From the IMG/VR virus record IMGVR_UViG_3300042356_001602: DNA of 64,000 nt, one strand, 5' to 3'. The position numbers and the translations under genes were made by a program. This DNA is from a virus (taxonomy: Duplodnaviria > Caudoviricetes). The number at the start of each line of letters is the position of its first letter. Positions within the stretch are counted from its first letter, which is position 1. Below are positions 1-40,171 of this stretch, piece after piece. The notes below the pieces were generated by a model, which did not search any database, had not been told where the DNA came from, and worked only from the letters and a program-made list of their open reading frames with translations.

Positions 1-329
1 CTTCCGATCTCAGCATACAATTCGCTAGCATACTTGCCATCAGATAATTTATTTAAAGCGTTAAAAATTGACCGATTTAAAGATTCAGATTCAAAAATAA
101 AACGGTTTGAAACTTCATAAAATGAAGTAATTACGCCAGTTCTAAGCATGAAGCCACCAGAACCGACTCCTTTGTTCTTAGCATAATCTTTGCTAGATTC
201 GATAAGAGCTTCTAGTTCTTCGTCTTTTCCAAGACTAGTATTTGAAAATACATTATGGAAAGAAGGAGCTTGAGCTTGAGCTGATGGTTCTTGAAAAAGA
301 TCATCATCGTTGTCAGAGTAATGAGACAT
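1..329 (-). CDS. hypothetical protein (partial, runs off window start)
   Basis: Manually translated open frame MSHYSDNDDDLFQEP...ELYAEIG from the ATG at 329; not in the ORF track. Confidence 0.75.
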   Translation of the reverse strand, partial: MSHYSDNDDDLFQEPSAQAQAPSFHNVFSNTSLGKDEELEALIESSKDYAKNKGVGSGGFMLRTGVITSFYEVSNRFIFESESLNRSIFNALNKLSDGKYASELYAEIG

Positions 330-373
330 TAAATATCCAAACTGTAAGTGGTCTATTTTTTTGTGTAAGATTG

Positions 374-2198: not shown

Positions 2199-2200
2199 AG

Positions 2201-2274
2201 TGGGCCCTCTGGGGCTCGAACCCAGGACACACGGATTATGAGTCCGATGCTCTAACCGACTGAGCTAAAGGCCC
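2201..2274 (-). tRNA. tRNA anticodon CAT (Ile2 or elongator Met)
   Basis: Full cloverleaf GGGCCTT...CTCATAA...TTCGAGC...AGGGCCC-A; no encoded CCA. Confidence 0.92.
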
Positions 2275-2435
2275 GTAAGACAGTTGTGAATGCTTAAATG
2301 GAAGGATAAGCATATTGGTATCACTTTGTGGACGGGCCAGTTGTAAACAAGTGGTGATCCGTAGCAATGGGGACTGTAAGCTCCCATAGATTAAAATGAT
2401 TGCATGTCACTGCATAACATTAATCAAATAAAATA

Positions 2436-2636
2436 TTAAAGCTTTCCAGCTCCTGGAATATACATATTGATCTTAGCGGATTCAAACATAACTGAAGGTT
2501 GATCATCTCTATCGTATTCAGCGCCAATTGACAATAGCTCAGTTAGCTCTTCTTTTAGTAGAGTAACTGCTAGGATGTCATCTTGAAATTCGCCAGGAAT
2601 ATCGGCATGGATTTCAACAATTAATTTAACTTTCAT
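2436..2636 (-). CDS. hypothetical protein
   Basis: ORF track; co-oriented and tightly packed. Confidence 0.6.
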   Translation of the reverse strand: MKVKLIVEIHADIPGEFQDDILAVTLLKEELTELLSIGAEYDRDDQPSVMFESAKINMYIPGAGKL

Positions 2637-2790
2637 GAGTTGGTGTAGCCTCTTCTGTAAGTAGTAAGTATAGACGAATGTCTAATAGCAGGTCTGTCAT
2701 TTCAGATGACGAGACAAGCTGTTGACCAGAAATGTCTCCAATAGCTTTATCAACCATTTGGATAGCATTGTTTTTTGGATTAATAGTCAT
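2626..2790 (-). CDS. hypothetical protein (54 aa)
   Basis: Manual translation MTINPKNNAIQMVDKAIG...; overlaps both neighbours. Confidence 0.6.
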   Translation of the reverse strand: MTINPKNNAIQMVDKAIGDISGQQLVSSSEMTDLLLDIRLYLLLTEEATPTHES

Positions 2791-3068
2791 TACGCTTCCC
2801 CTCCACGTTTTTTATATATAGTAACTGCTTTTTCTAAGGTGGTGCAGTAATCACCATTCGATGCTTCAAAGCCTTGAGGTATAGCCACAACGCTCCATAC
2901 TACGTATGGATGAAGCTCGTTCTCTTTATGACAAATAGTTATCCAATGAGCATAACTATCGTCAGGAATCCTATCAGCTTTTTTAGTAGCTGTTATAACC
3001 GTCCTATTGGTGGTGCCTACAACATCGCCAATATGAAGTTCGTTTAGTAAATTTAATTCATTTGTCAT
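2790..3068 (-). CDS. hypothetical protein
   Basis: Start moved to ATG 3068, directly after tRNA-Lys; the track start lies inside the tRNA. Confidence 0.7.
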   Translation of the reverse strand: MTNELNLLNELHIGDVVGTTNRTVITATKKADRIPDDSYAHWITICHKENELHPYVVWSVVAIPQGFEASNGDYCTTLEKAVTIYKKRGGEA

Positions 3069-3070
3069 AG

Positions 3071-3143
3071 TACGCCCTCCGGGGCTCGAACCCGGGACAC
3101 ACGGATTAAAAGTCCGATGCTCTACCAACTGAGCTAAAGGCGC
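3071..3143 (-). tRNA. tRNA-Lys(TTT)
   Basis: Full cloverleaf GCGCCTT...CTTTTAA...AGGGCGT-A. Confidence 0.93.
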
Positions 3144-3153
3144 GTGATGTCAT

Positions 3154-3366
3154 CTATGGATAGATGTCATCAATGGTAGTGGGTTCAACTATGTCTAGTG
3201 TTTGTAAAACTTGTTTAAGCTTTTTACTTTTTTTAATTTTATAACCAGCTGCATTAAGATCTTGAATAATTTTTTCTGGAATACCATGCCAGATTACAAT
3301 ACCAGAAGCAGTTAAAGAATGAGCAATAATATCAAGCTTATGTTTTTTGTGAAGTTTAAATATCAT
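3154..3366 (-). CDS. hypothetical protein
   Basis: ORF track. Confidence 0.6.
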   Translation of the reverse strand: MIFKLHKKHKLDIIAHSLTASGIVIWHGIPEKIIQDLNAAGYKIKKSKKLKQVLQTLDIVEPTTIDDIYP

Positions 3367-3400
3367 TAATTAATCCTTATGTCTATATGTATAATAACAA

Positions 3401-3601
3401 TTATACAACGCGAACGTTGATTGCTTCAGGACCTTTACGTCCTTCGCCAATATCGAATTGAACACTTTGACCTGTAGTCAATGCAGGCTGGGCAGCTTGT
3501 TCAACATTAGAAGTATGAACAAAGATGTCTCCATCTGTGTCTGTAGAAATAAAGCCAAAGCCTTTTTCTTCATTGAAAAATTTTACAATACCTGTAGGCA
3601 T
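3401..3601 (-). CDS. cspA: cold-shock domain protein
   Basis: GIVKFFNEEKGFGFI (RNP1) and DIFVHTS (RNP2). Confidence 0.95.
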   Translation of the reverse strand: MPTGIVKFFNEEKGFGFISTDTDGDIFVHTSNVEQAAQPALTTGQSVQFDIGEGRKGPEAINVRVV

Positions 3602-3851
3602 TAGTACTCGTTTCTATTATATTTTTTGTTTAATGGATTCCATAATAAATTATGGTTTCCATAGTTTTTCTACTATAAAAGTTAAAACACCTGCAATAAC
3701 TAATATGATTAGTATATCTTTCATTCGTAATAACCTTGATTTCTAGTAGAGATTCCATAAGGAGTTTGATGGATTTTGTTATAGGATTTATAACGTTGTC
3801 TAGCTGTACGCTTAAACCTAATCCTATTAATTAAATGTTGAATAGAGTAAA

Positions 3852-4139
3852 TCATATTCCATCCTTATTGATAATTCTTTTAGGTTTTCTTTTGGCATTG
3901 CCATAAGGAAAATAACCTAGTTTTACACGTTGTTCTTCTGTTTCGCCACCCCATATGCCGTACTCAAGGTTGTCACGAGCATAAGCTCTGCACTGAGTGG
4001 CTACTGGGCATTGAGAACAAATGGTCAAAGCTTTTGCTTCTCGTTTAACTCTAGCTTGAGGGCGTTCGTTATAAAGCGGAAAGAATAAATCAGTTTGATT
4101 TTTACATGCCGCTGCATCGAACCATGAAGGGTGATACAT
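3852..4139 (-). CDS. whiB: WhiB-family transcription factor
   Basis: Four Cys (C..LFFP...CSQCPVATQC) and GIWGGETEEQR. Confidence 0.93.
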   Translation of the reverse strand: MYHPSWFDAAACKNQTDLFFPLYNERPQARVKREAKALTICSQCPVATQCRAYARDNLEYGIWGGETEEQRVKLGYFPYGNAKRKPKRIINKDGI

Positions 4140-4182
4140 TTAAATCCTTAAAAGGTACTAATTTGATATAAAGGTCACTTAA

Positions 4183-4473
4183 TTAAAGAGGCCAGTGTTT
4201 TGAATCTGCCTTAGGATCTAATGCAGGTATTATATTGCATGATAGATTATGCTTTTCTTGAGTTGAATCAACCCAAGCTTTTGCTTGTTCTAAGGTAGCG
4301 AATGGACCCCATGATACAACATGGGTGTATCCATGATACTGGGCAAAGTAAGTATACTTAGGTAGATCATCTTGTTGCAAAACAGAATTATACCATTCCA
4401 TTTTTGACATATTAACATCTATATCTTCTAGAATAGATATAGTTTTAAGTGCGTTTCTAATTTTTTTAAACAT
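4183..4473 (-). CDS. hypothetical protein
   Basis: ORF track. Confidence 0.65.
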   Translation of the reverse strand: MFKKIRNALKTISILEDIDVNMSKMEWYNSVLQQDDLPKYTYFAQYHGYTHVVSWGPFATLEQAKAWVDSTQEKHNLSCNIIPALDPKADSKHWPL

Positions 4474-4476
4474 GGG

Positions 4477-4761
4477 TTAATCCTGACCAAAGTTAACGTG
4501 TACAACATTGTTTACGTCATTAGTTTTAGGGGTGTACAAGAGTACTTTAGCCAAAGCTTGAGAATAACCCTTAAATGCTGGATGATCATCTGGAATTTCA
4601 TCTCCGTACTCTGCACGATGAATGTAAAGAACACGTCCATCTTCAAAGTGGAAATCTAAACGATATCCAGAATCAGAAGTAAAAGCTTCCAAAGCATCTT
4701 CGATATTTAAATGATCAGCAGTTAAGCCATCATTTGAACGAGTTGAGTAAGTAATAAACAT
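4477..4761 (-). CDS. hypothetical protein
   Basis: Start moved to ATG 4761 (TAATG coupling with the upstream gene). Confidence 0.65.
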   Translation of the reverse strand: MFITYSTRSNDGLTADHLNIEDALEAFTSDSGYRLDFHFEDGRVLYIHRAEYGDEIPDDHPAFKGYSQALAKVLLYTPKTNDVNNVVHVNFGQD

Positions 4762-4964
4762 TATAGATACTTCCATTTATCAATTGCAGGGATGAGGCCT
4801 AAAATAGAACCATCATCCCATTTTGCAAATACAGTTCCGTTAGAATCTACCGCAGTTACTGTTCCCTGAGAGCCAGGGACAAGATTAGTGTATCTGTCGG
4901 TGCAAGTAATTATTTCTATACGTCTACCTAATAGGTGAGACATGTCATATTTGGATTTTGTCAT
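4761..4964 (-). CDS. DUF4314-like SH3-barrel protein
   Basis: G.RIE.....D.Y..LVPG..GTV..VD..GT.FAKWDDGS.LGLIP..D; start at ATG 4964 directly after tRNA-Asn. Confidence 0.75.
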   Translation of the reverse strand: MTKSKYDMSHLLGRRIEIITCTDRYTNLVPGSQGTVTAVDSNGTVFAKWDDGSILGLIPAIDKWKYL

Positions 4965-4966
4965 AG

Positions 4967-5039
4967 CTCCCAGAGTAGGGCTCGAACCTACGACCAACGG
5001 ATTAACAGTCCGTAGCTCTGCCAACTGAGCTATCTGGGA
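4967..5039 (-). tRNA. tRNA-Asn(GTT)
   Basis: Full cloverleaf TCCCAGA...CTGTTAA...TCTGGGA-G. Confidence 0.93.
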
Positions 5040-5044
5040 TTAGA

Positions 5045-5305
5045 TTAAATTATTACTTCAAGTGAAGAATCGTAATTTTGCAACTGAGGGTTATCAAGAA
5101 GTTGAATAGCAAATAACGGAGTAACGTCGTGACTATCAAAATCTGTTTCAGTGTTAGCAAATGACAAAGTCAAATTAGCTTCATGAAGAGATAATAAAAG
5201 CTCTCTAAGGTCAAGGCCTATAGGTCTAAGATTATCAATTAAGCGATGAGCTATAAGAATAAGATCTTGAGCTTCTTGACGTGTTGGTTGTATTTTTGTT
5301 TTCAT
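5045..5305 (-). CDS. hypothetical protein
   Basis: ORF track; AAGGA ribosome-binding site upstream. Confidence 0.65.
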   Translation of the reverse strand: MKTKIQPTRQEAQDLILIAHRLIDNLRPIGLDLRELLLSLHEANLTLSFANTETDFDSHDVTPLFAIQLLDNPQLQNYDSSLEVII

Positions 5306-5328
5306 GTTTTCCTTTATTGGTGGTTATT

Positions 5329-5631
5329 TTACCAACCGCAACGTGAAAATATAATTGCAGTTGATAATACATATATGAGCAAAAGTGTTTCATATCTATA
5401 GCGAGAATACACTCTTGCAGAACGTATGCCCTTGCGATAAAGAGCATCTTGTTTTCTGGCTAGATTATATTCATCTACACGATATGGATAAGTGAAGAAG
5501 TGATGATCTTCAATTGTCTTGTGATGTTTAATACCGTAATCAAATCCATCAGTAAATGGTCTGATTTTTGGAATTAAATTGTTAATAAACTTTTTCATAA
5601 GTATGTTTATTTCCTTAAAATAATTTGTCAT
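5329..5631 (-). CDS. hypothetical protein with C-terminal TM segment
   Basis: ORF track; hydrophobic C-terminus. Confidence 0.6.
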   Translation of the reverse strand: MTNYFKEINILMKKFINNLIPKIRPFTDGFDYGIKHHKTIEDHHFFTYPYRVDEYNLARKQDALYRKGIRSARVYSRYRYETLLLIYVLSTAIIFSRCGW

Positions 5632-5649
5632 GCTTATTACAGCAGACAG

Positions 5650-5733
5650 TACCCGAGACCGGACTTGAACCGGTAAGAGGTTGCCCTCCGGGGGGTTTAA
5701 GCCCCCTGCGTCTGCCTATTCCGCCACTCGGGT
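5650..5733 (-). tRNA. tRNA-Leu(TAA)
   Basis: ACCCGAG acceptor, GGCGGAATAGGCAGACGC D-arm, CTTAAAC loop, long variable arm. Confidence 0.93.
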
Positions 5734-6550: not shown

Positions 6551-8107
6551 CTATTTTCCTTTAAATATAGATTTGATAGTTGATGAAGAAATTTTGTTTC
6601 TAGGATATATGTTTTGATTAGAAGTGTAAGATGATGTAGAACCATCATAAGATACAGATCTCATAGCACAGTATGAAATATTCTTAGCTGGAACTTTTAA
6701 TCTGTAAACGTTCCATCCATAAGAAGCGCTACGAGGAATCATATATTCAGTAGATCCATTGCACTTTAATGTATAATAAGAAACATTTTTAAAGTTTACA
6801 TATGGATCTCTATAATAGATTTGAACATAGGTTTTAAATTTACCATCAACTTCATGTAAGTTGGGGGTAGATACTCGTTTAGGTGTAGTTCCAGGAATTG
6901 TTGTAGTGACTACAGGAAATGTAGTAGTAGTAACAATTGGGGCTACAGTGGTGGTAGTAACAGGTGCTGGAACAGTAGTTGAAACAACTGGAACTGTAGT
7001 GGTAGTCACTACAGGAATAGTAGTGGTTGCTACGGGAACTGTTGTAGTAGTTACAGGAACTACTGTAGTTGTGGTTGTGGGAGTAGTAGGAGTATCTGTT
7101 GCAAATAGATGAGCAAAGTCTAAGCGAGGAATTGTTATGCGAGCATAAGAATCGTAAGCAGTTTTAGTTGTAGATTTAAAATCAGAAACAACTTTAAAAA
7201 CAGATTGAATTCCAAACTTAGATCTGTAAACAGCAAATGCTCCAACTACAAATGGTGTTGCCATTGAAGTTCCAGAAGCTGTTCCATAAATAGCTCCAGT
7301 TTTTGAAGAGTTAATAACATAACCGGGAGCAGCTATTGTAGTATATTTACTTATATTTGAAAAATTAGTAATAGTACTTGTACCAGTGTACATAGCAGCT
7401 ACAGAAACTGAAGAAGAAATGCATGCAGGAACGCTCATTCCGTGGGAATAGTTATTACCAGCAGCAATTACTGTAGCTATATTTTTATCTCTAAGATTTT
7501 CAATAGCAGTTGTCATTGAAGGAATGTAATCATCACAAGTAGTTAAATATGTAGTGTTTCCCCCAAGAGACATATTGATTGCAGCAATATTGTAAGTATT
7601 TGAAATTGATAAAACCCAATTTAAAGCACGAGTGATATCATCGTCATATGCTGCTCCAGTAGAATCAAACACATTGATAGCAATAATATTAGATTCAGGG
7701 GCTACACCATAAAAAGAAGAATTGTATCCAGCTACAATTCCGGCAACATGAGTGCCGTGCCAGTGAACTGGCTTAGCTGCTCCTGGGCCAATCTGTTGAT
7801 TTTTGCCATTAGGACATAAGGCAGCAAAACAGGCTTCTAAAGAAACTCTGTTTTGAAAGAATGGATGAGATACTTCTACTCCTGTATCTATGATAACAGT
7901 ATAGACTCCTTGACCACGATATTGTGATTCAAAGGGAATGTTTCCAGAGATAAAGGGTATTGAGGTATTTAAAGTATGTTTAAATTTAACCCGAGAAGTT
8001 GCAGGAGCAACATCGTAGATATTGTATTGAGCTTGTGCTGGACTGTATATAAATATACTAGAAATTAAAGCAGCAGAAAGCACAAAATGCTTTAGCTTAA
8101 AGGACAT
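6551..8107 (-). CDS. secreted subtilisin-family (S8) serine protease with Pro/Thr/Val linker and C-terminal beta domain
   Basis: Signal peptide; catalytic triad IIDTG / HGTHVAG / GTSMATP; PVTTTT repeats. Confidence 0.92.
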   Translation of the reverse strand: MSFKLKHFVLSAALISSIFIYSPAQAQYNIYDVAPATSRVKFKHTLNTSIPFISGNIPFESQYRGQGVYTVIIDTGVEVSHPFFQNRVSLEACFAALCPNGKNQQIGPGAAKPVHWHGTHVAGIVAGYNSSFYGVAPESNIIAINVFDSTGAAYDDDITRALNWVLSISNTYNIAAINMSLGGNTTYLTTCDDYIPSMTTAIENLRDKNIATVIAAGNNYSHGMSVPACISSSVSVAAMYTGTSTITNFSNISKYTTIAAPGYVINSSKTGAIYGTASGTSMATPFVVGAFAVYRSKFGIQSVFKVVSDFKSTTKTAYDSYARITIPRLDFAHLFATDTPTTPTTTTTVVPVTTTTVPVATTTIPVVTTTTVPVVSTTVPAPVTTTTVAPIVTTTTFPVVTTTIPGTTPKRVSTPNLHEVDGKFKTYVQIYYRDPYVNFKNVSYYTLKCNGSTEYMIPRSASYGWNVYRLKVPAKNISYCAMRSVSYDGSTSSYTSNQNIYPRNKISSSTIKSIFKGK

Positions 8108-8181: not shown

Positions 8182-9855
8182 TTAAAAGTTTTTCTTACTA
8201 GATATTTTATTCTGTAGCCATTTAGGCTTAGGATTGTTTTCGTAGTAACGAGAGATGATTTGACTAGCCATGCCCTTGGTCATGTCAGTGGTAATAGGTA
8301 TACCTATACGCTTTAATAGTTTTTGTTGAGAGTCAGTTGGGGAATCTGCTCTCCATGCTGCTGAAGAGTCAAGGAGAGCTACAGATGAAGCTCTGTTGGA
8401 TTGTATCCATTTATCAGAGCGAGCAAAAGCTTCACGCATATCAGGAGCAATACCAAGAACTCTAGTAGATTTCTGAACGTTATCATGTAGAGTTACATTC
8501 CAACGTCCAAGTGTATCGCACTTAATACGCATAGATTCAGAATTGTTTAAGCCAAGATGAAATTCATCTTCAGCTATTTCTGCCCAAACTAATTTAGAAT
8601 ATTCTAAGACAACAGGGTTAGGAGGTGGTGGCATAAATAGATTAATACGAGTATAAGCTACTTGTATATCATCAGGATTAAGAACACGAACAGCTTCGCC
8701 TGGACAATAAGATTCAAGTTCTTCAAACTTTTCAGCTACGTCTGTAAGGCTTTGTCCTTGTAAATCGAATTCTGGTGGCATACCCAATAGAGTAGGAAGG
8801 CCAATAGGCTTCTTTCCCTTTGTGGTGTCTGCAATGTCTATAATTATACAATGCTCTTTACCTTCAAATAAACGAGTACCTCGTCCAACTATTTGAGTAT
8901 AGAGGAGAGTGCTTCGAGTAGGTTTAGCTATTATGATGGCTTCTAATGATGGCTCGTCAAAGCCTTCAGTCAAAACGCCAACATTTACAATAACGGAAAT
9001 TTGTCCTTTTGCAAACTGAGCAAGGATGATTTCTCGTTCTTCTCGTGGGGTTGTCCCTACGATTACAGCTGTTTTTACCGACGCTTGGTTAAAGGATAAG
9101 GCCAAGTTTTGGGCGTGTCTGACGCCGGATGCGTATACAAGGGCTTTTTTATCCATTGCCAGATTGCGATAGGCAGCGACAACATGAGCATTACGCTCAG
9201 GGTTATCAATTTTTTCTTCCAATTGCGATTGACTATATTCGCCATTTTGGATCTCCACTTCTGAAATGTCGGTACTTGTTTTTACTCTATATCCTACGAG
9301 TGGTGATAACCACCCTTCTTGGATAAGATCTTGTATAGTTCTATAGTAGACTATTTCGTCAAAGACATCAATTAGTCTAGTAGAATCTGATCTTTGCGGC
9401 GTCGCAGTAACGCCCAGCAGAAAATCAGGAGAGAAGAAATCAATAATTCTTCTATAACTAGGAGCAGCAGCATGGTGAGCCTCATCTATAACTATGGATT
9501 TAAAGTAATCTTTAGGATATTGTTCTATACGAGGAGTATTGTTTCTACCCAAGGTAGCAACGCTGGCAACGACTACGTCTACTTTGCCAGCTTTACGTTC
9601 AGCTTGTTCAATCTCTACAGTGAGATTGGGATTACAATCTAGGATTTTGGACCTAGCTTGTTCTAATAACTCAGACCTATGAGCTAAGACTAGCATAGGT
9701 AAAGTATCTGGTTTAATTATAGGAAGCTGTGAAAATATAACAGTTTTTCCTGCACCAGTTGGAAGAACTACTAGTTGTTTCGTAATACCGTTATTAGCAT
9801 TAGTTACAACAGCATCGAGTGCTTCTTGTTGATATGGTCGCAGTGTAAATGTCAT
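8182..9855 (-). CDS. SF2 DExH helicase (ResIII/IRC3-like)
   Basis: LPTGAGKT, IDEAHH, TATPQR, LTEGFD, QIVGRGTR. Confidence 0.93.
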   Translation of the reverse strand: MTFTLRPYQQEALDAVVTNANNGITKQLVVLPTGAGKTVIFSQLPIIKPDTLPMLVLAHRSELLEQARSKILDCNPNLTVEIEQAERKAGKVDVVVASVATLGRNNTPRIEQYPKDYFKSIVIDEAHHAAAPSYRRIIDFFSPDFLLGVTATPQRSDSTRLIDVFDEIVYYRTIQDLIQEGWLSPLVGYRVKTSTDISEVEIQNGEYSQSQLEEKIDNPERNAHVVAAYRNLAMDKKALVYASGVRHAQNLALSFNQASVKTAVIVGTTPREEREIILAQFAKGQISVIVNVGVLTEGFDEPSLEAIIIAKPTRSTLLYTQIVGRGTRLFEGKEHCIIIDIADTTKGKKPIGLPTLLGMPPEFDLQGQSLTDVAEKFEELESYCPGEAVRVLNPDDIQVAYTRINLFMPPPPNPVVLEYSKLVWAEIAEDEFHLGLNNSESMRIKCDTLGRWNVTLHDNVQKSTRVLGIAPDMREAFARSDKWIQSNRASSVALLDSSAAWRADSPTDSQQKLLKRIGIPITTDMTKGMASQIISRYYENNPKPKWLQNKISSKKNF

Positions 9856-10792: not shown

Positions 10793-13333
10793 CTAGAACT
10801 CAGCTTTGAGTCTGCGTACAGGAGTGGGTGTTTCATTGTTTGTAAACACAATAGGTGAGAATGTTGCATGATGCTTTTGGTACTCAAGCACGTCATCAAA
10901 GACGTGTTCGGTTCCATCAGGATCTGTATACAGCCACTTATTGTGCCTAAAAGTTTTGATCTTATACTCATTGTCTTCGTATTGCATGATTACACGCTTA
11001 CCAATGCCATAGTGAATGAGAGCTTTCTCAAGATATGGATATACGGTGCGGTTCATTACAATCTGGTCAGACAATTTACCTGAACTAGTAGGCTCTTTGA
11101 TGCTAGAGCAGTACAAAGCAAGTACGAAGTCATGTTGGTCTTCAATGCGTTCAAATGAATTGATTGCATCAACGACAAACTTGTACAAGTAGTCCCATTC
11201 TTCACGCTTTATAGAACCAACAGTTTGAACGAATTCGTTACTGTTAGTATTATAAATGTTCATACGGAACTTACGCAATATGGGACCAGCGTGAAAGTAC
11301 AAGCGTTCAGCAAGAGCCTGAATAGTTGGAGACAATTCAATATTCTCTTGAGAGTACTTGGTAACACGCTCTACATACAGTGCATTGTAATGCTTGCAAA
11401 GGTTATTCAAATGAGTAAGGGTACCTTCGTAGGTTTCTACTTCAGGATGCTTACGGGAAAGATTCTTAAAGCGACCGAACCATAGATCATGATCTATTGG
11501 GCGACCGGAATTAAGAACCTCTTGAATAATAGTTTCTGCTTCAGCATCAATTGCTTGACGATCACGAGGATCTGAAGTCTGAGTACATCCGTCAATAGCA
11601 GATTCTAAAGAACATACTTGAACTGGACGATGTTTTCCTAGTGTGGAAGAGTGGAGCATTGAGCCGTTTACGAAACGACCAACGTTACCACCCATCATCG
11701 CAGTATCAATGTCTGCCATAACATCTGCTACAGAATAATTTTGCTCAGTCTTACGAAGAGGTAAAGGGTTGTGATCACTCGGCAAACCAAGATATCTAAC
11801 CTGATTGTTGCGGATTGCATGAGACAATCGAACTGGCCAGTTACGACCATTTACTTCAGGAAAGCTAATCACTTCGCCATTAGCCTTAGACCAAGTAGGA
11901 TACCACTCGTCTTCAACATAGCTAAGAATGGTGTATTCACCATAGCCATTAGGAGAACGAGCGATAATAACTACTTTTTCGTTATCACGAGTACCACCGG
12001 TAAGTGTACGGTAGAACAACTTAAAGAAGTCGTCTTGATCATGACCGCCATGGCTCTCGTACATCTCGAGCCAGTCAAAGTCATTAACAACATGAACACC
12101 GATATCATTGATTCGACGAATTGTACCTTCGTCAACTTCAATGTTCCATCCGCCCATACGTGCTAACGATTCAGGAATAACCTGCTCGTAAACACTGCAC
12201 GGAATAGGAATACGGTTTTCAAGTGGCTTTGCGTGGGAGATAGCAAGAGTCTTAAACAACCACGGAGAATCCGTAATTGATAATCCCATACTGGCCCAAC
12301 GATAGCCAACGTATCCGATGCGAGCTTGAGCTTCTACATCTTCTACTTCTTTATTGTCACGTGAGAACTGACGAACAAAGTATGACTTCCAGTTGGTGAG
12401 AAGACGTCCATTGACTGCGTCTTGGAACATCTTTTCATAGTCTTCTTTGAGCCACATTTCCATGTCAGCTTTGCGGAACAACTTTGGAAAGTTGATAACA
12501 GTTTGATCATCAGTAACTACACGGGACTTAGGTCCTTGAGGTTCTGCGATAAGACGAAATCCACCAGAGTAAGCAAGTTCTTTCTTAACGTTGTCACGTG
12601 TTGAAAGAATGTCAACACCTTCTGGAAGATTATCTGAAACGATAAAGTTACCTTTAATCATTCCATCTTCGAAAAGGAGTCTACCATTAAATACTCGAGA
12701 TTCAATTAAGAATCTGCGAAGATCTGCTTGGATCTTAGGATCGTAGTATACGTCGTTTTCATCTGCTGAATTAACGGAGTCATAGATAGGCATTGCCTCT
12801 ACTGCCTTACGAATAAGGCGTGAAGAAACAATGAAGCCACCATCGAGAAGTCGAGGTGTAGCTTTTTCTACCCATTCTGCCCAACCAGATTCAAAGTTGA
12901 AACGTGTATAGTCAGTAGGGTTAACCCATTGAATATTGACGTTGTCAAAGTGAGCATTGATTAGAGCTGCACGGTGTACAGTCTTGAGACGCTTAGAGGT
13001 CTTGCCTCCACCTTTGACTTTGTATCCAGACTTAGTAAGTGCTGAAAGCCATCCGTTGGATCCTTTGAGGGAAACGGCAACAATCTTGTTTTTATCAACC
13101 AAGGCATACTCGACTGAAGGGTGAGAAATAATCTTCTCAACTTCAGCACGATCAAATACATTGGTAGGTATAGGCATTGTTGCTACACGAAACTCGGAAG
13201 CATCTACGTTTTCCATCAGCTCACGCATGATGCCGATGTCATAGAATCCGATTTGATAGTCGTTGGTAGAACGCAATGGAGCATCTTTAAATGCTTTCAT
13301 GCGTACTGTTGGTCGGTATGTATTAAAGTTCAT
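10793..13333 (-). CDS. single-subunit two-barrel RNA polymerase-like protein (YonO/RdRP-like), paralog B
   Basis: LLDGGFIVS, FNGR...MIKG (DPBB-B pattern); RIPIPCS, HGGHDQDD, IARSPNGYGEY (DPBB-A pattern); colinear with 25774..28152. Confidence 0.75.
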   Translation of the reverse strand: MNFNTYRPTVRMKAFKDAPLRSTNDYQIGFYDIGIMRELMENVDASEFRVATMPIPTNVFDRAEVEKIISHPSVEYALVDKNKIVAVSLKGSNGWLSALTKSGYKVKGGGKTSKRLKTVHRAALINAHFDNVNIQWVNPTDYTRFNFESGWAEWVEKATPRLLDGGFIVSSRLIRKAVEAMPIYDSVNSADENDVYYDPKIQADLRRFLIESRVFNGRLLFEDGMIKGNFIVSDNLPEGVDILSTRDNVKKELAYSGGFRLIAEPQGPKSRVVTDDQTVINFPKLFRKADMEMWLKEDYEKMFQDAVNGRLLTNWKSYFVRQFSRDNKEVEDVEAQARIGYVGYRWASMGLSITDSPWLFKTLAISHAKPLENRIPIPCSVYEQVIPESLARMGGWNIEVDEGTIRRINDIGVHVVNDFDWLEMYESHGGHDQDDFFKLFYRTLTGGTRDNEKVVIIARSPNGYGEYTILSYVEDEWYPTWSKANGEVISFPEVNGRNWPVRLSHAIRNNQVRYLGLPSDHNPLPLRKTEQNYSVADVMADIDTAMMGGNVGRFVNGSMLHSSTLGKHRPVQVCSLESAIDGCTQTSDPRDRQAIDAEAETIIQEVLNSGRPIDHDLWFGRFKNLSRKHPEVETYEGTLTHLNNLCKHYNALYVERVTKYSQENIELSPTIQALAERLYFHAGPILRKFRMNIYNTNSNEFVQTVGSIKREEWDYLYKFVVDAINSFERIEDQHDFVLALYCSSIKEPTSSGKLSDQIVMNRTVYPYLEKALIHYGIGKRVIMQYEDNEYKIKTFRHNKWLYTDPDGTEHVFDDVLEYQKHHATFSPIVFTNNETPTPVRRLKAEF

Positions 13334-25773: not shown

Positions 25774-28152
25774 CTAGATTGAGTTGAGTGCTCGGATGAA
25801 CCAATCAATTGGCTGCTTGGGGCTCTTTGCACTGAACGTGTACAACCACTGGTCGTGATTGGCCTTCGGATACTGACGCTTGGCAACATATGACTGATAA
25901 GCCAGTGCCAGTATCTTGCGGTTCATGTAGTCGACACCCTTGTCTGGGTTGTCATCAATACGAGTGAACAGATCACATAGGTAATCTACCCATGCTTCTG
26001 CAGTCATGATGCGACGCTTAACACTGATCTTTTGGTGTTCTAGAGCTGCATTGAGCAGTTCTTCTTCTGTCCACTGGATATTGAACAGCACCTCTGGCTC
26101 AACAAGCGTTGCATTCAGGTGGTCTGACATTTCGGAAACAGTGGTTCGCACCAGTATTTCTCGTTGGATATGCATCTGGCACCAAGGAGACTCTTCAACC
26201 GTAGTGGTTTCAAGGTCCTTAGCATGCACCTCTGGCATACGAGTTACCATCCAGAACATATCCATCTTGGTACCGTTAAGACCATTTGTTTCACGGATTT
26301 GGCGGTATAGTTCACCAACCCATTGTGCAATGAGCTTTACGTCAGCAACAGTAGCGAGTCCCTGTTCAATGCCGTCAATGATGTCTTCGTTACGAGCAAC
26401 AGGATTCTTGATGTATTCGTTGATTAGAGCATGCCAAAGGATCTTGGGCAGTACTGCAGAACCAACTCCACCAGGGAATGCCATTGCCACTAGTCGACTA
26501 CGTCCTTCATCTCCCAGAGAATACTCAGGGTTGATCTTCAGAATAGAGCTACCAGGAAGGGTTCCGGGAACAACCAAATTGTTCTCTTCCAGGTACGAAG
26601 ATTGAGGAACAGCCTTGAACAGCTCCTCATAGTCAATGACAGGCGGGAATGCAGTATACCGATGGAATACTGGGCCATAGTTCTCGATTGGGATCATTGA
26701 CCATTCACCAAAGTCATTTGGGTTACGGAGAATGAACGCCATAAGCTTGATGTTCCCATCAGCAAAGCGAACTAGTCGGACATGGATCTTCCATGTATCG
26801 TCTAGGTCATCCCCACCATGGTTGATGTGGTTCTTCTCGAAGTACTTACCAGGTACCGCAAAGCAGTGTGTCTTCTTGTGGTAATAGCCACAGTCATTGT
26901 ACACATTCTTGAATCCGAAGATTGAGAGTGCTTCTTGAGTCATTACGTGAGTGGCATATGCCCATTCAACCGGGAACCAGTGATACTGCTTATGACGCCA
27001 TACATTGCCCATGCCTTCATTTCCTTCGTTAGCACCAAGGAATGACCGCTTCAAACCATTTACTGTCAACCAGCGAAGTGTTTGTGTTGCATTAAATGGG
27101 ATTCCAGCTTGATCAAGATCACGAACAGCCTTTTGCACAATCTCAAGCGTAGAGACAGGTCGACGGAATTCATCTTCCTCACTAGCTTGATACTGGGCAA
27201 CAGCATTGTTGTTATCTACCAAGGTAGTCATGAACTTGAATTGGTTACCTTCTGCAAGGTCGACCTTTGCTTGTTCAAGAGTACCTATTAGGCCACGAAT
27301 GACATCTTCTTGAGTATACAGACCATTTACCTTCTGGTAGATGGCCATGGTAAGGTCATCACTCTTGACAGGGATAGCCGAGTACGACGGTTCGATTGTA
27401 GCAAACTGCCAACCCTTAGTGCTGATCTCGGGCTTGATGTTGGGACCAAAGGTCTTGATATCGTACCCATCCATCATCTTATCTGGGAGGACTAGAGCAT
27501 TGCCCTTGATCAACCCATCTTTCATGAGGACTCGGATCTGAACTACTGATGTTTGACCATCAAGGATTAGTGCAATCTGTTTGTTGATCCATTCACGTGA
27601 TGCACGATGGTTACTCACAACACAGCGTATAGCAAAGCTTTGGCTGATTGCGGAGATTCCATCTACATCACTATCGATGTACCCAAGATCTAGGTGGTCG
27701 ATAGTTTGAACCTTGATGTTGCCATCGGGATCATATGTCCACATGCATGACATGCGAACAATTTCAGCCAACCGCTTGCTCATCTTCTTTGAGTTCTTGA
27801 TCACAAGACCAACCTCATCGAGTCCAGCAAGCCACGTTGTCGTACGTCCACGATGGGGCTTCACACCTTTGATCCGCACTGTGTACTGATCTGATGAGTT
27901 GCTCCAACGCAGGATTTCTGAATTGGCTAGGATTGGCATAGCTGTAGGATCCTGTGAAGGAACCACACCATGCCATTGTTTTTGGATCTTTCGCACTTCG
28001 ATCCGGTAATGATCCGGAAAGAATTGCTCAAGAAAGGCGGGCCAATAAGGACCACCATCGAACTCCTCAAGAACTTTATCATTCTCAAGGAGAGGGACCG
28101 CAGTGATGAGCCGGAACCAGCCATCATTACGTTTGATAATACCATGAAACAT
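25774..28152 (-). CDS. single-subunit two-barrel RNA polymerase-like protein (YonO/RdRP-like), paralog A
   Basis: DVDGISAIS, VQIR...LIKG (RdRP-type DG..IS/QIR/KG); NHGGDDLDD; ILRNPNDFGEW. Confidence 0.78.
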   Translation of the reverse strand: MFHGIIKRNDGWFRLITAVPLLENDKVLEEFDGGPYWPAFLEQFFPDHYRIEVRKIQKQWHGVVPSQDPTAMPILANSEILRWSNSSDQYTVRIKGVKPHRGRTTTWLAGLDEVGLVIKNSKKMSKRLAEIVRMSCMWTYDPDGNIKVQTIDHLDLGYIDSDVDGISAISQSFAIRCVVSNHRASREWINKQIALILDGQTSVVQIRVLMKDGLIKGNALVLPDKMMDGYDIKTFGPNIKPEISTKGWQFATIEPSYSAIPVKSDDLTMAIYQKVNGLYTQEDVIRGLIGTLEQAKVDLAEGNQFKFMTTLVDNNNAVAQYQASEEDEFRRPVSTLEIVQKAVRDLDQAGIPFNATQTLRWLTVNGLKRSFLGANEGNEGMGNVWRHKQYHWFPVEWAYATHVMTQEALSIFGFKNVYNDCGYYHKKTHCFAVPGKYFEKNHINHGGDDLDDTWKIHVRLVRFADGNIKLMAFILRNPNDFGEWSMIPIENYGPVFHRYTAFPPVIDYEELFKAVPQSSYLEENNLVVPGTLPGSSILKINPEYSLGDEGRSRLVAMAFPGGVGSAVLPKILWHALINEYIKNPVARNEDIIDGIEQGLATVADVKLIAQWVGELYRQIRETNGLNGTKMDMFWMVTRMPEVHAKDLETTTVEESPWCQMHIQREILVRTTVSEMSDHLNATLVEPEVLFNIQWTEEELLNAALEHQKISVKRRIMTAEAWVDYLCDLFTRIDDNPDKGVDYMNRKILALAYQSYVAKRQYPKANHDQWLYTFSAKSPKQPIDWFIRALNSI

Positions 28153-29284: not shown

Positions 29285-31159
29285 TTATTGTTCCCAGTAG
29301 TTGTTCATTGTTACTTTTAGTTCATCTTTCAAGAATTTCACAATTGGCTTACGTGTTTCTTCAGGAAGAGGCTGATTGTGCTTGCCAAGCAACTGTGTCA
29401 TGTCGCCATTTACAGGAACTTCAAGTGTACCAATATAGGCAACGTTGTTCTGAATCTCTGCATGACCGATCCATTGACCTTCAATGTCCTTGAACCCAAT
29501 GATGATTGTTTGACCATTGTAAACACGATCTGCATAAGAGCCAATGCAATTGTTCTGAGTAGCTCCCCATTCAACAAGGTCATGCGTCATTTTAGGAACA
29601 ATCATCTGAATTCCTTCTGCAATCCACTTTCCATCAAATTCTGCAAATGTGTTATAGAACTTGGTCTTGGTGAGTTTCTTGTTCTGCGTCTTGATTTTGT
29701 TGTACTCTGCTGTAACAAAGTCATGGATCTCTTCAACATTCATCCTTGATCGTGCCACGTGCTGCTTAATTGCAGTTCTGTGATTGCGACTCTTTATCGC
29801 AGTAAACATATGTGCTGCATCAACAGCGTGCTGCCCATTTAAATACAAATGACCAAGATCTTTGTCAGGTGTAAACATTTGCAAGAGATATTCATCCTTA
29901 TAACCAAAGTCCCGAAAGAATGCCTTAAAACGTTTTCTCATTACAGGACTTGAGTTATAGCGCATGTAGTTACAGACTACGTCAAGATCCAACTTCTCTA
30001 ATACTTGAGGGTTGAACCCACGCGCAATGATCAATAAGTTGATAGCTCCACGAAGATGATCCAATGTCTTGATGTTATTGATGTCACCAAAGATCTTCTT
30101 AGTTACTCCATGAGGATGCATGTAAGCCTTATTCAAGATCTTCTTAGTGGACATCTCTCCACCAATCCAGTAGATATCGCTCTGGGTAATTCCATTTGGA
30201 TACAGACCTACTGATGTACCACCATACTCAGTTGGCATGTACTTGAGGATTTTCAATACATCTTCTTCCTTAATCAACTGATCACGCAGACCGAGCATTG
30301 TGATCTCAATTGCGGCATCGGTTGGAACCAATTTCTTCCTTGCCATCTGACTGTAACCAATACCCCAAATGGGAGCACCTGTCTTCTTGTTCTTCCACAT
30401 GAGACGATAACCGTTATCAGTCTTGTTCATGAATAGAACTCCAGGCCACTTCTTCTCATAGTGCTGACCTCTGGTGTTGATGGTTGCTGTTTTGAACTCA
30501 ACAATCCAACCAGCTTTTTCTCCAGGCATTTCAGATACATACATCTGATTGATGGAGACGTAATCAAACAACTTGGAATCCTGATACTCATCTCCATATG
30601 TTTGTTCAAGTTTCAAGACCCGCTTGGTACGTGAACCTTTTTGCATGGATCGAGTTGAATATGCATGAAGTGGAGAGAAATCGTCTTCACCAGAAACGTA
30701 CACACCCAATTTGTCTACCTTCTCATTGAACTTCTTAATGGCATTTCTTGCATCCAAGTAGTTGTCATTAATAAGTGCCAATGATTCTATTACTTCAATC
30801 TTGGACAGAGGAGTTTGCTTTAAAATACGAGCTTTTGGGAAAGAACGATCATTGCCCACCACAGTCATAATGCTTAAACGATGATCCATCTCAGCTTGAT
30901 TCATTACGTGTTGGATTTGACTGATATCAAGTATCGCCTTTGCCAAGTCCATTGAATCCATTTCTGCTGGATTGATGCCTGCAAACCAGAGGTTGTATTC
31001 CTCTAGCGTGCCTGTTCTTGTTTTGATTGTGAGCTTCATGGGCTCGGTCTCCTTTTCTATCGGGAATGGGTTTGTCTCTTGTGGAGAGGGGATTGGTGGT
31101 TTTGGATAGTGGGTGGATGGGACATCAGTTTGCTCGAAACTGTTCATGGTTACCTCCAT
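29285..31159 (-). CDS. PcfJ-like domain protein
   Basis: C-terminal PK...DLVEWG..QNNCIGSY...V..G...I motif. Confidence 0.7.
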   Translation of the reverse strand: MEVTMNSFEQTDVPSTHYPKPPIPSPQETNPFPIEKETEPMKLTIKTRTGTLEEYNLWFAGINPAEMDSMDLAKAILDISQIQHVMNQAEMDHRLSIMTVVGNDRSFPKARILKQTPLSKIEVIESLALINDNYLDARNAIKKFNEKVDKLGVYVSGEDDFSPLHAYSTRSMQKGSRTKRVLKLEQTYGDEYQDSKLFDYVSINQMYVSEMPGEKAGWIVEFKTATINTRGQHYEKKWPGVLFMNKTDNGYRLMWKNKKTGAPIWGIGYSQMARKKLVPTDAAIEITMLGLRDQLIKEEDVLKILKYMPTEYGGTSVGLYPNGITQSDIYWIGGEMSTKKILNKAYMHPHGVTKKIFGDINNIKTLDHLRGAINLLIIARGFNPQVLEKLDLDVVCNYMRYNSSPVMRKRFKAFFRDFGYKDEYLLQMFTPDKDLGHLYLNGQHAVDAAHMFTAIKSRNHRTAIKQHVARSRMNVEEIHDFVTAEYNKIKTQNKKLTKTKFYNTFAEFDGKWIAEGIQMIVPKMTHDLVEWGATQNNCIGSYADRVYNGQTIIIGFKDIEGQWIGHAEIQNNVAYIGTLEVPVNGDMTQLLGKHNQPLPEETRKPIVKFLKDELKVTMNNYWEQ

Positions 31160-39462: not shown

Positions 39463-40171
39463 TATAGAAAAAGCAAATAATAAGAATGGTTTCATGAAAG
39501 AATTTGAGTCTTTAAGACCAGATCTTTTTTTTCCGGATCACTGGAATGAAGAACAGATAAATAAAGCTATAGAATTGGTTAAGCCACAAAAAACACGAAC
39601 TGCAATGTTCTCTTCAATTCCAATGAATTGTGAAGCAGAGAGATGTGTATATGCTTCAACATGTCCATTGTTGAAAGAAAACGTTGCTCCAAAGAATAAC
39701 CCGTGCCCAATAGAGATGTCGATGGTTTCTCAATTTACTGCCGAATATCTTGAGCAGCTAGATGTTAATCCTAACAACTTGGTAGAAGTTTCAATGGTTA
39801 GAGATTTAGTCGACCAAGAAGTTCAGTACATTAGAAAAACAAAACTACTTGCCAAAGAACACTTCATTCAAGAAAATGTTATTGGAATAGATCAAGATGG
39901 TCAACCAATACTTAAGAAAGAATTACATTTAGCTGTAGAACTAGAAGACAAGCTACACAAGCGTCGCAAGGATCTTAGAAATCAATTACTTGCAACGAGA
40001 GAAGCTAAAGCTAAAGTTGGTCAAGTTCAACTTGATACAGCACAAGCAATTTCAGATATTATCAATAAAGTTCAATCTATAGAAAATCAAAGAGAAAAAA
40101 TTCTTAAACAAAAACTTGGAACTTATGAGGTAGACGATTATATTGAATCACAGGAAATAAAGGATGAGTAA
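39455..40171 (+). CDS. Cys-cluster helical protein (possible terminase small subunit)
   Basis: C....C.....C.........CPIE then coiled coils; function inferred from position only. Confidence 0.6.
   Translation: MSNIEKANNKNGFMKEFESLRPDLFFPDHWNEEQINKAIELVKPQKTRTAMFSSIPMNCEAERCVYASTCPLLKENVAPKNNPCPIEMSMVSQFTAEYLEQLDVNPNNLVEVSMVRDLVDQEVQYIRKTKLLAKEHFIQENVIGIDQDGQPILKKELHLAVELEDKLHKRRKDLRNQLLATREAKAKVGQVQLDTAQAISDIINKVQSIENQREKILKQKLGTYEVDDYIESQEIKDE

Follow-up and report, generated by a model that had tools for sequence, protein, structure and literature searches.

A family of phage-encoded, two-barrel polymerase-like proteins with the Arg-x-Pro motif behind the aspartate loop and a probably rewired double-psi barrel

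The catalytic barrel of the two-barrel polymerases is, to our knowledge, among the most conserved protein modules known, and as far as we know its chain order is identical in all structures compared so far, whether these come from bacterial, archaeal or eukaryotic RNA polymerases (RNAPs), from PolD, from QDE-1/RDR enzymes, from crAss gp66 or from gp64 and gp96 of phage P23-45. Here we describe two genes of an uncultured lake phage of about 200 kb whose products, P0001 and P0002, resemble these enzymes in fold and carry two of their active-site motifs in the opposite order, and we discuss how the barrel that holds these motifs may be wired. Both genes lie in a stretch of 64,000 nucleotides (the window) of the IMG/VR record IMGVR_UViG_3300042356_001602 (Duplodnaviria; Caudoviricetes), which is part of an 86-kb fragment with an estimated completeness of 42%:

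10793..13333, minus strand: P0001 gene, coding for a two-barrel polymerase-like protein of 846 amino acids (open reading frame, translation, AlphaFold2, Foldseek, VIA)
25774..28152, minus strand: P0002 gene, coding for a paralog of 792 amino acids (translation), about 25% identical to P0001 in two collinear blocks

The canonical catalytic barrel (double-psi beta-barrel A, DPBB-A) has been laid out for Thermus beta-prime in the structure-based alignment of Chaban et al. (Supplementary Fig. 7; PMC10770324), where strand 1 (GRSVIVVGP) is followed by strand 2 (LKLHQCGLP), helix alpha-1, a strand 3 that ends in Arg-x-Pro (RxP; KVVLLNRAP, or ..VARSP in QDE-1), the gate loop, strands 4 and 5, helix alpha-2, the Asp loop and strand 6. 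As for the arrangement in space, Yagi and Tagami give the double-psi strand order as beta3-beta1'-beta2-beta2'-beta1-beta3', and inverting beta2 and beta2' makes every pair antiparallel (PMC11258233). In single-chain numbering the ring reads 3-4-2-5-1-6, with two parallel pairs (2/4 and 5/1) and with strand 6 between strands 1 and 3; the RxP end of strand 3 therefore lies beside the Asp loop at the start of strand 6. In QDE-1, R962 of this motif forms hydrogen bonds with two 2'-OH groups, one at the RNA 3' end and one on the incoming nucleoside triphosphate, and P964 touches the minor groove (the "Pro-gate loop"; PMC9508822). RxP precedes the aspartates in QDE-1 (R962/P964, D1007) and in Rpb1 (R446/P448, D481) (PMC2919709), and also in the sequences that we checked ourselves, those of E. 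coli beta-prime (R425-A-P427, D460-F-D-G-D464) and P23-45 gp64 (R288-R-P290, D326-Y-D-G-D330). The premise of the original prediction for this locus, which had been made from the sequence of the window and took the RxP strand to come before the catalytic loop in known enzymes, is therefore sound for these four. The bipartite motif of SPbeta YonO is collinear with QDE-1 691-747 and 951-1014 (PMC2919709). A search of control genomes with PF00623 gave no loci that could be used as further canonical sequences.

The two phage proteins show the motifs in the reverse order. The translation of P0001 reads H428-G-G-H-D432-Q-D434-D435 and then, after 23 residues, R459-S460-P461; that of P0002 reads H445-G-G-D-D449-L-D451-D452 and, again after 23 residues, R476-N-P478, with one more Asp at the first loop position besides its DxDD:

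12029..12052, minus strand: metal-binding loop HGGHDQDD of P0001, residues 428-435 (G430, D432, D434 and D435 invariant)
11951-11959, minus strand: codons of R459-S-P461 of P0001 (R459 and P461 invariant)
26797..26820, minus strand: metal-binding loop HGGDDLDD of P0002, residues 445-452 (translation)
26719..26727, minus strand: R476-N-P478 of P0002 (aligned with R459/P461 in two family alignments)

The original prediction had counted exactly 23 residues between the last Asp of DxDD and the Arg of RxP in both paralogs, and it was right as to both the number and the place; the exact figure is, however, no constant of the family, in which the distance varies from 14 to 45 with two modes, 23 (202 sequences) and 18 (89 sequences). 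The two paralogs share the same value because their hairpins are of similar length. We note that the two modes correspond to two lengths of the strand-6/strand-3 hairpin, and that an insertion at P0001 columns 443-449 is mostly confined to the clade of P0001 itself.

It is the order that holds throughout. DxDD is followed by RxP in all 122 full-length family representatives, and this order is a property of the family, far beyond chance. In an alignment of 107 full-length sequences (20-50% identity) the sole invariant columns are K114, G165, K227, G430, D432, D434, D435, R459 and P461, and in a domain alignment of 149 sequences they are G, D, D, D, R and P. P0001 does have an upstream R374-I-P376, which we considered as a canonical gate and rejected, R374 being an Arg in only 14 of the 107 sequences. 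The canonical chain order, in which strands 4 and 5, alpha-2 and the Asp loop all come after the RxP strand, is thus not the one found here.

The Asp motif is itself unusual. In the family it reads GG-x-D-x-D-D, with mostly Cys, Trp, Pro, His or Ser at the first loop position, so that the DxDxD signature of barrel A of the superfamily is absent and its three aspartates are present in another register. The loop has the same length as that of QDE-1 (GG-D-Y-D-G-D, that is, GG and five residues before strand 6), with Asp at positions 2, 4 and 5 instead of 1, 3 and 5; to judge from this register in a loop of equal length, it must be shaped differently from the QDE-1 loop. The shift of the aspartates and the rewiring of the barrel discussed below may be linked.

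Membership in the two-barrel superfamily comes from structure. No Pfam family, PF05183 included, is found at E <= 1 for P0001 or P0002; searches of PHROGs and of PDB sequences, whether started from a single protein or from one of two profiles, turned up nothing relevant and did not reach QDE-1 or RDR2; and tblastn of both proteins against 50,697 cultured-phage records found nothing. Our structure models are of P0001 (full protein and residues 368-500): an AlphaFold2 model of the full protein from a 28-sequence alignment, with a mean predicted local distance difference test (pLDDT) of 83.8 and a predicted TM-score (pTM) of 0.80, and a model of the domain 368-500 folded alone from 149 sequences (pLDDT 95.0, pTM 0.88). 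With the full model the best Foldseek match is QDE-1 (E 8e-10), accompanied by RDR2, P74-26 gp62 and gp64, and every one of the 23 matches at E <= 0.001 is either an RNA-dependent RNA polymerase (RdRP) or phage gp62/gp64. VIA aligns 569 residues of the same model with maize RDR2 (Z 12.1, root-mean-square deviation 7.4), and also finds QDE-1 (Z 9.4-9.8) and gp64 (Z 9.3, 403 residues aligned). The matches to RDR2, QDE-1 and gp62/gp64, whose fold comprises two barrels, a bridge region and a clamp, agree with the original prediction, which had thought of a possible new subfamily of two-barrel polymerases: on the predicted fold of P0001, the two genes code for single-chain two-barrel RNA polymerases.

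Ruprich-Robert and Thuriaux list eight residues as universal among two-barrel enzymes, which in QDE-1 are D709, R738, K743, R962, P964, D1007, D1009 and D1011 (PMC2919709). In the 107 sequences D164 is nearly invariant, K227, R459, P461, D432, D434 and D435 are invariant, and R218 of "N.R.....G..KG" is conserved at the consensus level only. As far as can be judged from these alignments, all universal active-site items are present, with R-x-P on the other side of the aspartates. Those of the first barrel, DPBB-B, are encoded as follows:

12842..12844, minus strand: D164 of LLDGG, putative counterpart of QDE-1 D709 (D164 nearly invariant, G165 invariant)
12650..12655, minus strand: K227-G228 (IKGN), putative counterpart of the universal barrel-B Lys (K227 invariant in 107 sequences)

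How, then, is the catalytic barrel built? DSSP gives the same result for both models, which also have a bridge at 376-377, and the elements of the domain can be assigned to slots of the double-psi barrel:

12173..12196, minus strand: strand 380-387, strand-1 slot (DSSP, covariation; in VIA, small double-psi barrels and Rpb1 strand 1 start at model residue 12-13)
12125..12172, minus strand: residues 388-403, helix 388-393 and coil 394-403, presumably the sole remaining psi-type crossover, from slot 1 to slot 2 (DSSP; couplings S389-D418 and P387-W421)
12110..12124, minus strand: strand 404-408, strand-2 slot (covariation with 413-416 and 467-473)
12086..12097, minus strand: strand 413-416, strand-5 slot, leading into alpha-2 (DSSP)
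12053..12082, minus strand: helix 418-427, alpha-2 (DSSP)
11999..12028, minus strand: strand 436-445, strand-6 slot (DSSP; flanked by 380-387 and 452-459)
11951..11980, minus strand: strand 452-459, with R459-S460-P461 at its end (Arg-x-Pro gate), strand-3 slot (invariance, covariation)
11915..11935, minus strand: strand 467-473 (467-472 in the models), strand-4 slot, closing the barrel against 404-408 (covariation)

Residues 413-445 are clearly the canonical strand 5, alpha-2, Asp loop and strand 6, in the same strand-helix-Asp loop-strand pattern as in beta-prime and gp64. Four residues form the turn between 404-408 and 413-416, a short turn leads from 436-445 to 452-459, and the loop S460-E466 joins strand 452-459 to the next strand. 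Comparing the topology of the predicted structure with that of known barrels, as the original prediction had proposed, tells against a canonical upstream gate: neither model of P0001 has a strand between helix 388-393 and strand 404-408, where the canonical strand 3 belongs, the upstream Arg is not conserved, and two additional strands come after strand 6. We had at one point taken 380-387 with helix 388-393 for the canonical strand 2 and alpha-1, which they resemble ("LDQVGVPKSIA"), and dropped this assignment because couplings and VIA ranges place 380-387 in the strand-1 slot.

Covariation allows the strand pairs to be read independently of the structure models. Pseudo-likelihood couplings were obtained from 349 non-identical family sequences, with an effective number (Neff) of 158 at 80% identity, over 113 columns with <30% gaps; they replaced a mean-field direct coupling analysis that was noisy and disturbed by the gappy columns 443-449. 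Positive scores were summed over each parallel and antiparallel register of 15 strand pairs, and the six best pairings score between 11.7 and 19.1:

436-445 with 452-459: antiparallel, register sum 896, score 19.1
452-459 with 467-473: antiparallel, register sum 925, score 18.9
404-408 with 413-416: antiparallel, register sum 819, score 16.4
380-387 with 436-445: antiparallel, register sum 820, score 16.1
380-387 with 413-416: parallel, offset 29, score 15.7
404-408 with 467-473: parallel, offset 69, score 11.7

The other nine pairs score 5.0-12.8, the highest of them (12.8) being 436-445 with 467-473, as expected for two strands that flank 452-459. The six pairings close one ring, 380-387, 436-445, 452-459, 467-473, 404-408 and 413-416. 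Numbered from 413-416 (strand 5) and 436-445 (strand 6), the ring reads 1-6-3-4-2-5, as in a double-psi barrel, and both of its parallel pairs (1/5 and 2/4) coincide with the canonical positions. That this parallel-pair hallmark seems to be recovered from sequences alone is, we think, the strongest argument for a kept architecture. Since 380-387 takes the strand-1 flank of strand 6, 452-459 falls into the strand-3 slot, and, this strand being antiparallel to strand 6, R459-S-P461 comes to lie across from D435/F436; at a register sum of 896, F437 is the partner of R459 and D435 that of P461. Along the chain the slots follow each other as 1-2-5-6-3-4.

We consider it probable, on these grounds, that the catalytic barrel keeps its double-psi architecture with its chain rewired to 1-2-5-6-3-4 and the gate hairpin behind strand 6. 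The positions and directions of the slots would be unchanged with respect to the canonical 1-2-alpha1-3-4-5-alpha2-6, and the chain would pass from strand 1 through a psi-type crossover to strand 2, by a tight turn to strand 5, through alpha-2 and the Asp loop to strand 6, by a tight turn to strand 3 and, over the Arg-Ser/Asn-Pro loop, to strand 4. To arrive at this path, strands 2 and 5, which are spatial neighbours, would have lost the alpha1-3-4 segment that lay between them and would be linked by a four-residue turn, and the 3-gate-4 hairpin would have been placed, via a tight turn, after strand 6, the spatial neighbour of strand 3, with helix alpha-1 lost. Because strand 3 would form a hairpin with strand 6, R459 and P461 would stand directly across from D435/F436, at the site of the canonical Pro-gate loop. 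One conceivable route is that the gate hairpin was first duplicated and its original copy then lost; the evidence favours no route over another. The suggestion of a "permuted or strand-swapped" DPBB-A in the original prediction is therefore supported, with a qualification: the invariant downstream Arg and Pro, the absence of a strand at 394-403 and the covariation ring support a non-canonical order, and a circular permutation is not what they describe.

Structure comparison of the domain alone fits this arrangement in its own way. Foldseek of the domain model against the PDB returns nothing at E below 1, and VIA against 48,161 chains reaches a best Z of 3.0; the top rows are nonetheless RNAP barrel A and small double-psi barrels. 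The standard barrels PEX1-N 13-99 (51 residues, 2.2 A), the designed msDPBB_sym2 4-89, CDC48A-N 26-110 and Sec18p-N 26-109 map to model residues 12-77/85, as does Drosophila Rpb1 350-507, the range being P0001 379-452, and QDE-1 910-1028 is aligned over 72 residues. The standard strand 1 falls on 380-387 and the standard strand 6 on 436-445, and the RxP hairpin remains outside every sequential alignment.

The last of these results can also be read as a canonical barrel with an extra C-terminal hairpin, 452-473, lying outside it, in which case the RxP would be a lineage-specific mimic and the canonical Arg would have been lost. Sequential aligners do cover a standard barrel with 379-444 alone, P0001 does carry R374-I-P376 upstream of its Asp loop, and part of the hairpin is matched by a gp62 segment that lies beyond strand 6 (model 1..99 to chain 237..351). 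We think that this explanation, the one among the alternatives that survives best, is nevertheless unlikely, as it has to accommodate an upstream position that is Arg in 14 of 107 sequences against an invariant R459 and P461, a segment 376-445 that contains only four strands, with 394-403 as coil, and so leaves two slots empty, and a covariation ring that is closed by 452-459 and 467-473, including the pair 467-473/404-408.

Another possibility is a refolded, all-antiparallel barrel, RIFT-like or a meander, in which the hairpin 404-408/413-416 is flipped and the RxP strand still stands beside strand 6. The couplings T404-V473 and T404-S471 fit an antiparallel 404-408/469-473, I386-V413 and H414-S460/N462 fit a flipped 413-416, and PH-domain and sliding-clamp meanders are among the weak VIA matches. 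The register sums, however, favour the parallel alternative at both pairs (15.7 vs 9.2 and 11.7 vs 8.6), the strongest coupling of all, S389-D418, together with P387-W421 and M393-Y425, requires 413-416 to be parallel to 380-387, and two reversed strands would hardly allow double-psi barrels to be aligned over 51-57 residues at 2.2-2.9 A, so that we judge such a refolding rather improbable. We give still less credit to a true circular permutation, 3-4-5-alpha2-6-1-2, which would put 452-459 in the strand-1 slot and R459 off the position of the canonical Arg. Circular permutation is a common evolutionary route, the twofold pseudo-symmetry of the barrel permits it and the block 404-445 resembles the canonical 4-5-alpha2-6; but the pairs that it predicts score low (9.1 for 380-387/404-408, 5.9 for 467-473/413-416 and 5.0 for 413-416/452-459, the rewired pairs reaching 15.7-18.9), and where it leads one to expect a sequential alignment over 404-472, all small-barrel alignments start at 379-380 and end at 442-447. 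A last alternative, that we are dealing with polymerase relatives that have lost catalysis, serve a structural or regulatory purpose and owe their motif order to decay, would agree with the missing DxDxD motif and the lack of Pfam, PHROG and PDB sequence matches but is very improbable, because Asp, Arg, Pro and Lys are invariant over hundreds of clusters and in both paralog lineages, which all complete genomes examined have retained; this points to purifying selection on the active site.

Several observations weigh against the rewired barrel and should be set out together. Neff is only 158 for the covariation; the parallel pairing 404-408/467-473 is modestly above its antiparallel alternative (11.7 vs 8.6); the couplings A391-I408, I386-V413 and H414-S460 fit the rewired model poorly; the domain model reaches Z of only 2-3 and the individual small-barrel alignments are weak; the Asp register 2, 4, 5 instead of 1, 3, 5 is in itself unusual; and the slot argument leans on the published double-psi strand order together with our own mapping of the polymerase strands. 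The sequence of the hairpin, in contrast, offers a weak point in favour, as it is similar to that of canonical gates. In P0001 the moved hairpin is VVIIARSPNGYGEY (K-V-V-I-I-A-R-S-P-N-G-Y-G-E-Y-T-I-L), to be compared with the gate hairpins of gp64, RVIFNRRPDLPTGQ (E-R-V-I-F-N-R-R-P-D-L-P-T-G-Q-S-A-V-E-L), of QDE-1 (..V-A-R-S-P-A-H-F-P..) and of beta-prime (V-L-L-N-R-A-P-T-L-H-R-L-G-I-Q-A-F). With a two-block position-specific matrix derived from the hairpins of the family, the canonical gate is the top window of gp64 (position 282, about 590 windows) and of the N-terminal region of gp96 (position 735, about 1270 windows). In E. coli beta-prime the same test failed, which counts against the rewired barrel. 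The score depends mainly on the invariant R and P, and the resemblance is therefore weak evidence. Short segment hidden Markov models run with hmmsearch against gp64, gp96 and beta-prime gave nearly empty results.

If the rewired barrel is accepted, its topology would make R459 spatially equivalent to the canonical Arg, and R459 and P461 would sense the 2'-OH and form the gate at the minor groove; D432, D434 and D435 would bind the catalytic Mg2+, and the proteins would be active as RNA polymerases. The residues R459, P461, D432, D434 and D435 are those that we would name for mutational tests of transcription owned by the phage. Such a barrel would mean that selection has held fixed the geometry of the active site and not its topology. 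It would be a natural case to set beside the laboratory interconversion of small barrels, a natural experiment on how far a transcription active site can be rebuilt, and it would explain the failure of profile methods to annotate these abundant phage enzymes. The pattern DxDD followed by RxP(N/S)..GE(Y/W) can serve as a search signature for the family.

It is useful to compare the family with its closest relatives one by one. With QDE-1 and plant RDR2 (2J7N, 7Y7P, 7W82, 7W84) it shares the two-barrel fold in a single chain, along some 560-590 residues (VIA Z 9.4-12.1), the first-barrel motifs DG..(I/V)S and KG, and an Asp loop of equal length preceded by GG, and the A-R-S-P gate of P0001 is identical to A961-R962-S963-P964 of QDE-1. 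However, RxP stands 45 residues before the first Asp in QDE-1 and 14-45 residues after the last Asp in the phage family; the aspartates of QDE-1 and RDR2 form DxDGD (1, 3, 5) whereas those of the phages form DxDD (2, 4, 5); and the former enzymes are eukaryotic whereas the phage family has no PF05183 match and no detectable sequence similarity to them. The Thermus phage proteins, P23-45 gp64 (non-virion) and gp96 (a virion protein fused to the tape measure) and P74-26 gp62 (8F72, 8F5M, 8H2M), are likewise phage-encoded, minimal single-chain two-barrel enzymes (VIA Z 9.1-9.3, 374-403 residues aligned), and, as in our family, each phage has two anciently duplicated paralogs; the gate hairpin shows a similar sequence pattern. 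Unlike our proteins, gp64 has the canonical order and DxDGD, in about 600 residues as against about 800-850; the likeness to gp64 and gp96 is at the level of fold, with no sequence homology, and relatives of gp64 are found only in Thermus phages. DPBB-A of beta-prime and Rpb1 offers the same barrel architecture and universal residues, with 62-67 residues aligned from strand 1 to strand 6 at a weak Z of 2.6-3.0, but it belongs to a separate subunit, follows the order 1-2-alpha1-3-4-5-alpha2-6, with a large insertion separating alpha-1 from strand 3. Finally, the cradle-loop barrels (double-psi, RIFT, swapped-hairpin and the engineered double-zeta) provide precedents for six-stranded barrels that are wired differently (PMC11258233); these variants change the direction of strands or swap hairpins between halves, whereas the phage barrel apparently differs in chain order only.

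The family is a large one of lake phages with genomes of about 200 kb; in metagenomes a profile search found 394 clusters at 50% identity and word-based searches hundreds of 90% clusters, and all of its named members are labelled "hypothetical" or "uncharacterized". P0001 orthologs are carried by 43 viral contigs, and four IMG/VR genomes of 202-211 kb (96-100% complete, three of the four with terminal repeats) each have both paralogs, about 15 kb apart. The original prediction had called for the collection of homologs and a phylogeny, and the outcome was favourable to it: a tree of 127 members falls into two superclades, one with P0001 and the other with P0002, and DxDD is followed by RxP throughout both. 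From this tree (FastTree, midpoint root), in which many branches are long, only the deep split was used. The four genomes or contigs that have both genes contribute one member to each superclade, with parallel branching. As the order is present throughout both superclades, it predates the duplication. We lean towards the wider view that this is a natural family with a non-cyclic rewired barrel, a transposed Pro-gate hairpin and a shifted Asp triad, and hence a new topology of the oldest polymerase fold, older than an ancient duplication in jumbo phages. A literature search that did not cover all journals found no description of the family, of a permuted two-barrel polymerase or of the order 1-2-5-6-3-4. 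The two paralogs would be the transcription enzymes of the phage itself, and by analogy with P23-45, phiKZ and AR9 they probably divide its transcription programme between them.

Some relatives deserve a mention in their own right. P0385 and P0392, relatives of P0002 with 1191-1213 amino acids, are about 400 residues longer and have a precomputed Pfam match to PF08719, which suggests a polymerase fused to another domain. One of the four complete or nearly complete genomes (210,831 bp) gives a weak third match to the profile of the catalytic domain in a frame of 972 amino acids (G004:C1:20085-20273, locus L013; E 2.5e-6, profile positions 54-111), which may be a very divergent third polymerase. 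In BFVD, the UniProt entries A0A6J5NTF7 and A0A6J5M9G6 ("uncultured Caudovirales phage"), both uncharacterized, are public members of the family, with identities of 63% and 17% and query TM-scores of 0.97 and 0.66 respectively; next come several phage proteins annotated "RNA dependent RNA polymerase" (E 1e-6 to 3e-3).

The other genes of the window, among them a large terminase, a portal, tail fibres, four tRNAs, a helicase and a subtilase, identify the DNA as that of a phage. The three neighbouring protein genes are all on the strand of the two polymerase genes; the tRNA genes are listed with them:

6551-8107, 8182-9855 and 29285-31159, minus strand: neighbour genes, coding for a subtilase-family protease (PF00082), a ResIII/DEAD-type helicase and a PcfJ-like protein
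2200-5733: four tRNA genes

An open reading frame of 1224 amino acids (40164-43838, plus strand) was considered as a third polymerase and rejected, having no DxDD/RxP pair. It lies just upstream of the large terminase gene and has no Pfam or PHROG match; a stretch "MTSDIETGG" in it recalls the DEDD exonuclease motif, and it ends in a Gln-rich tail.

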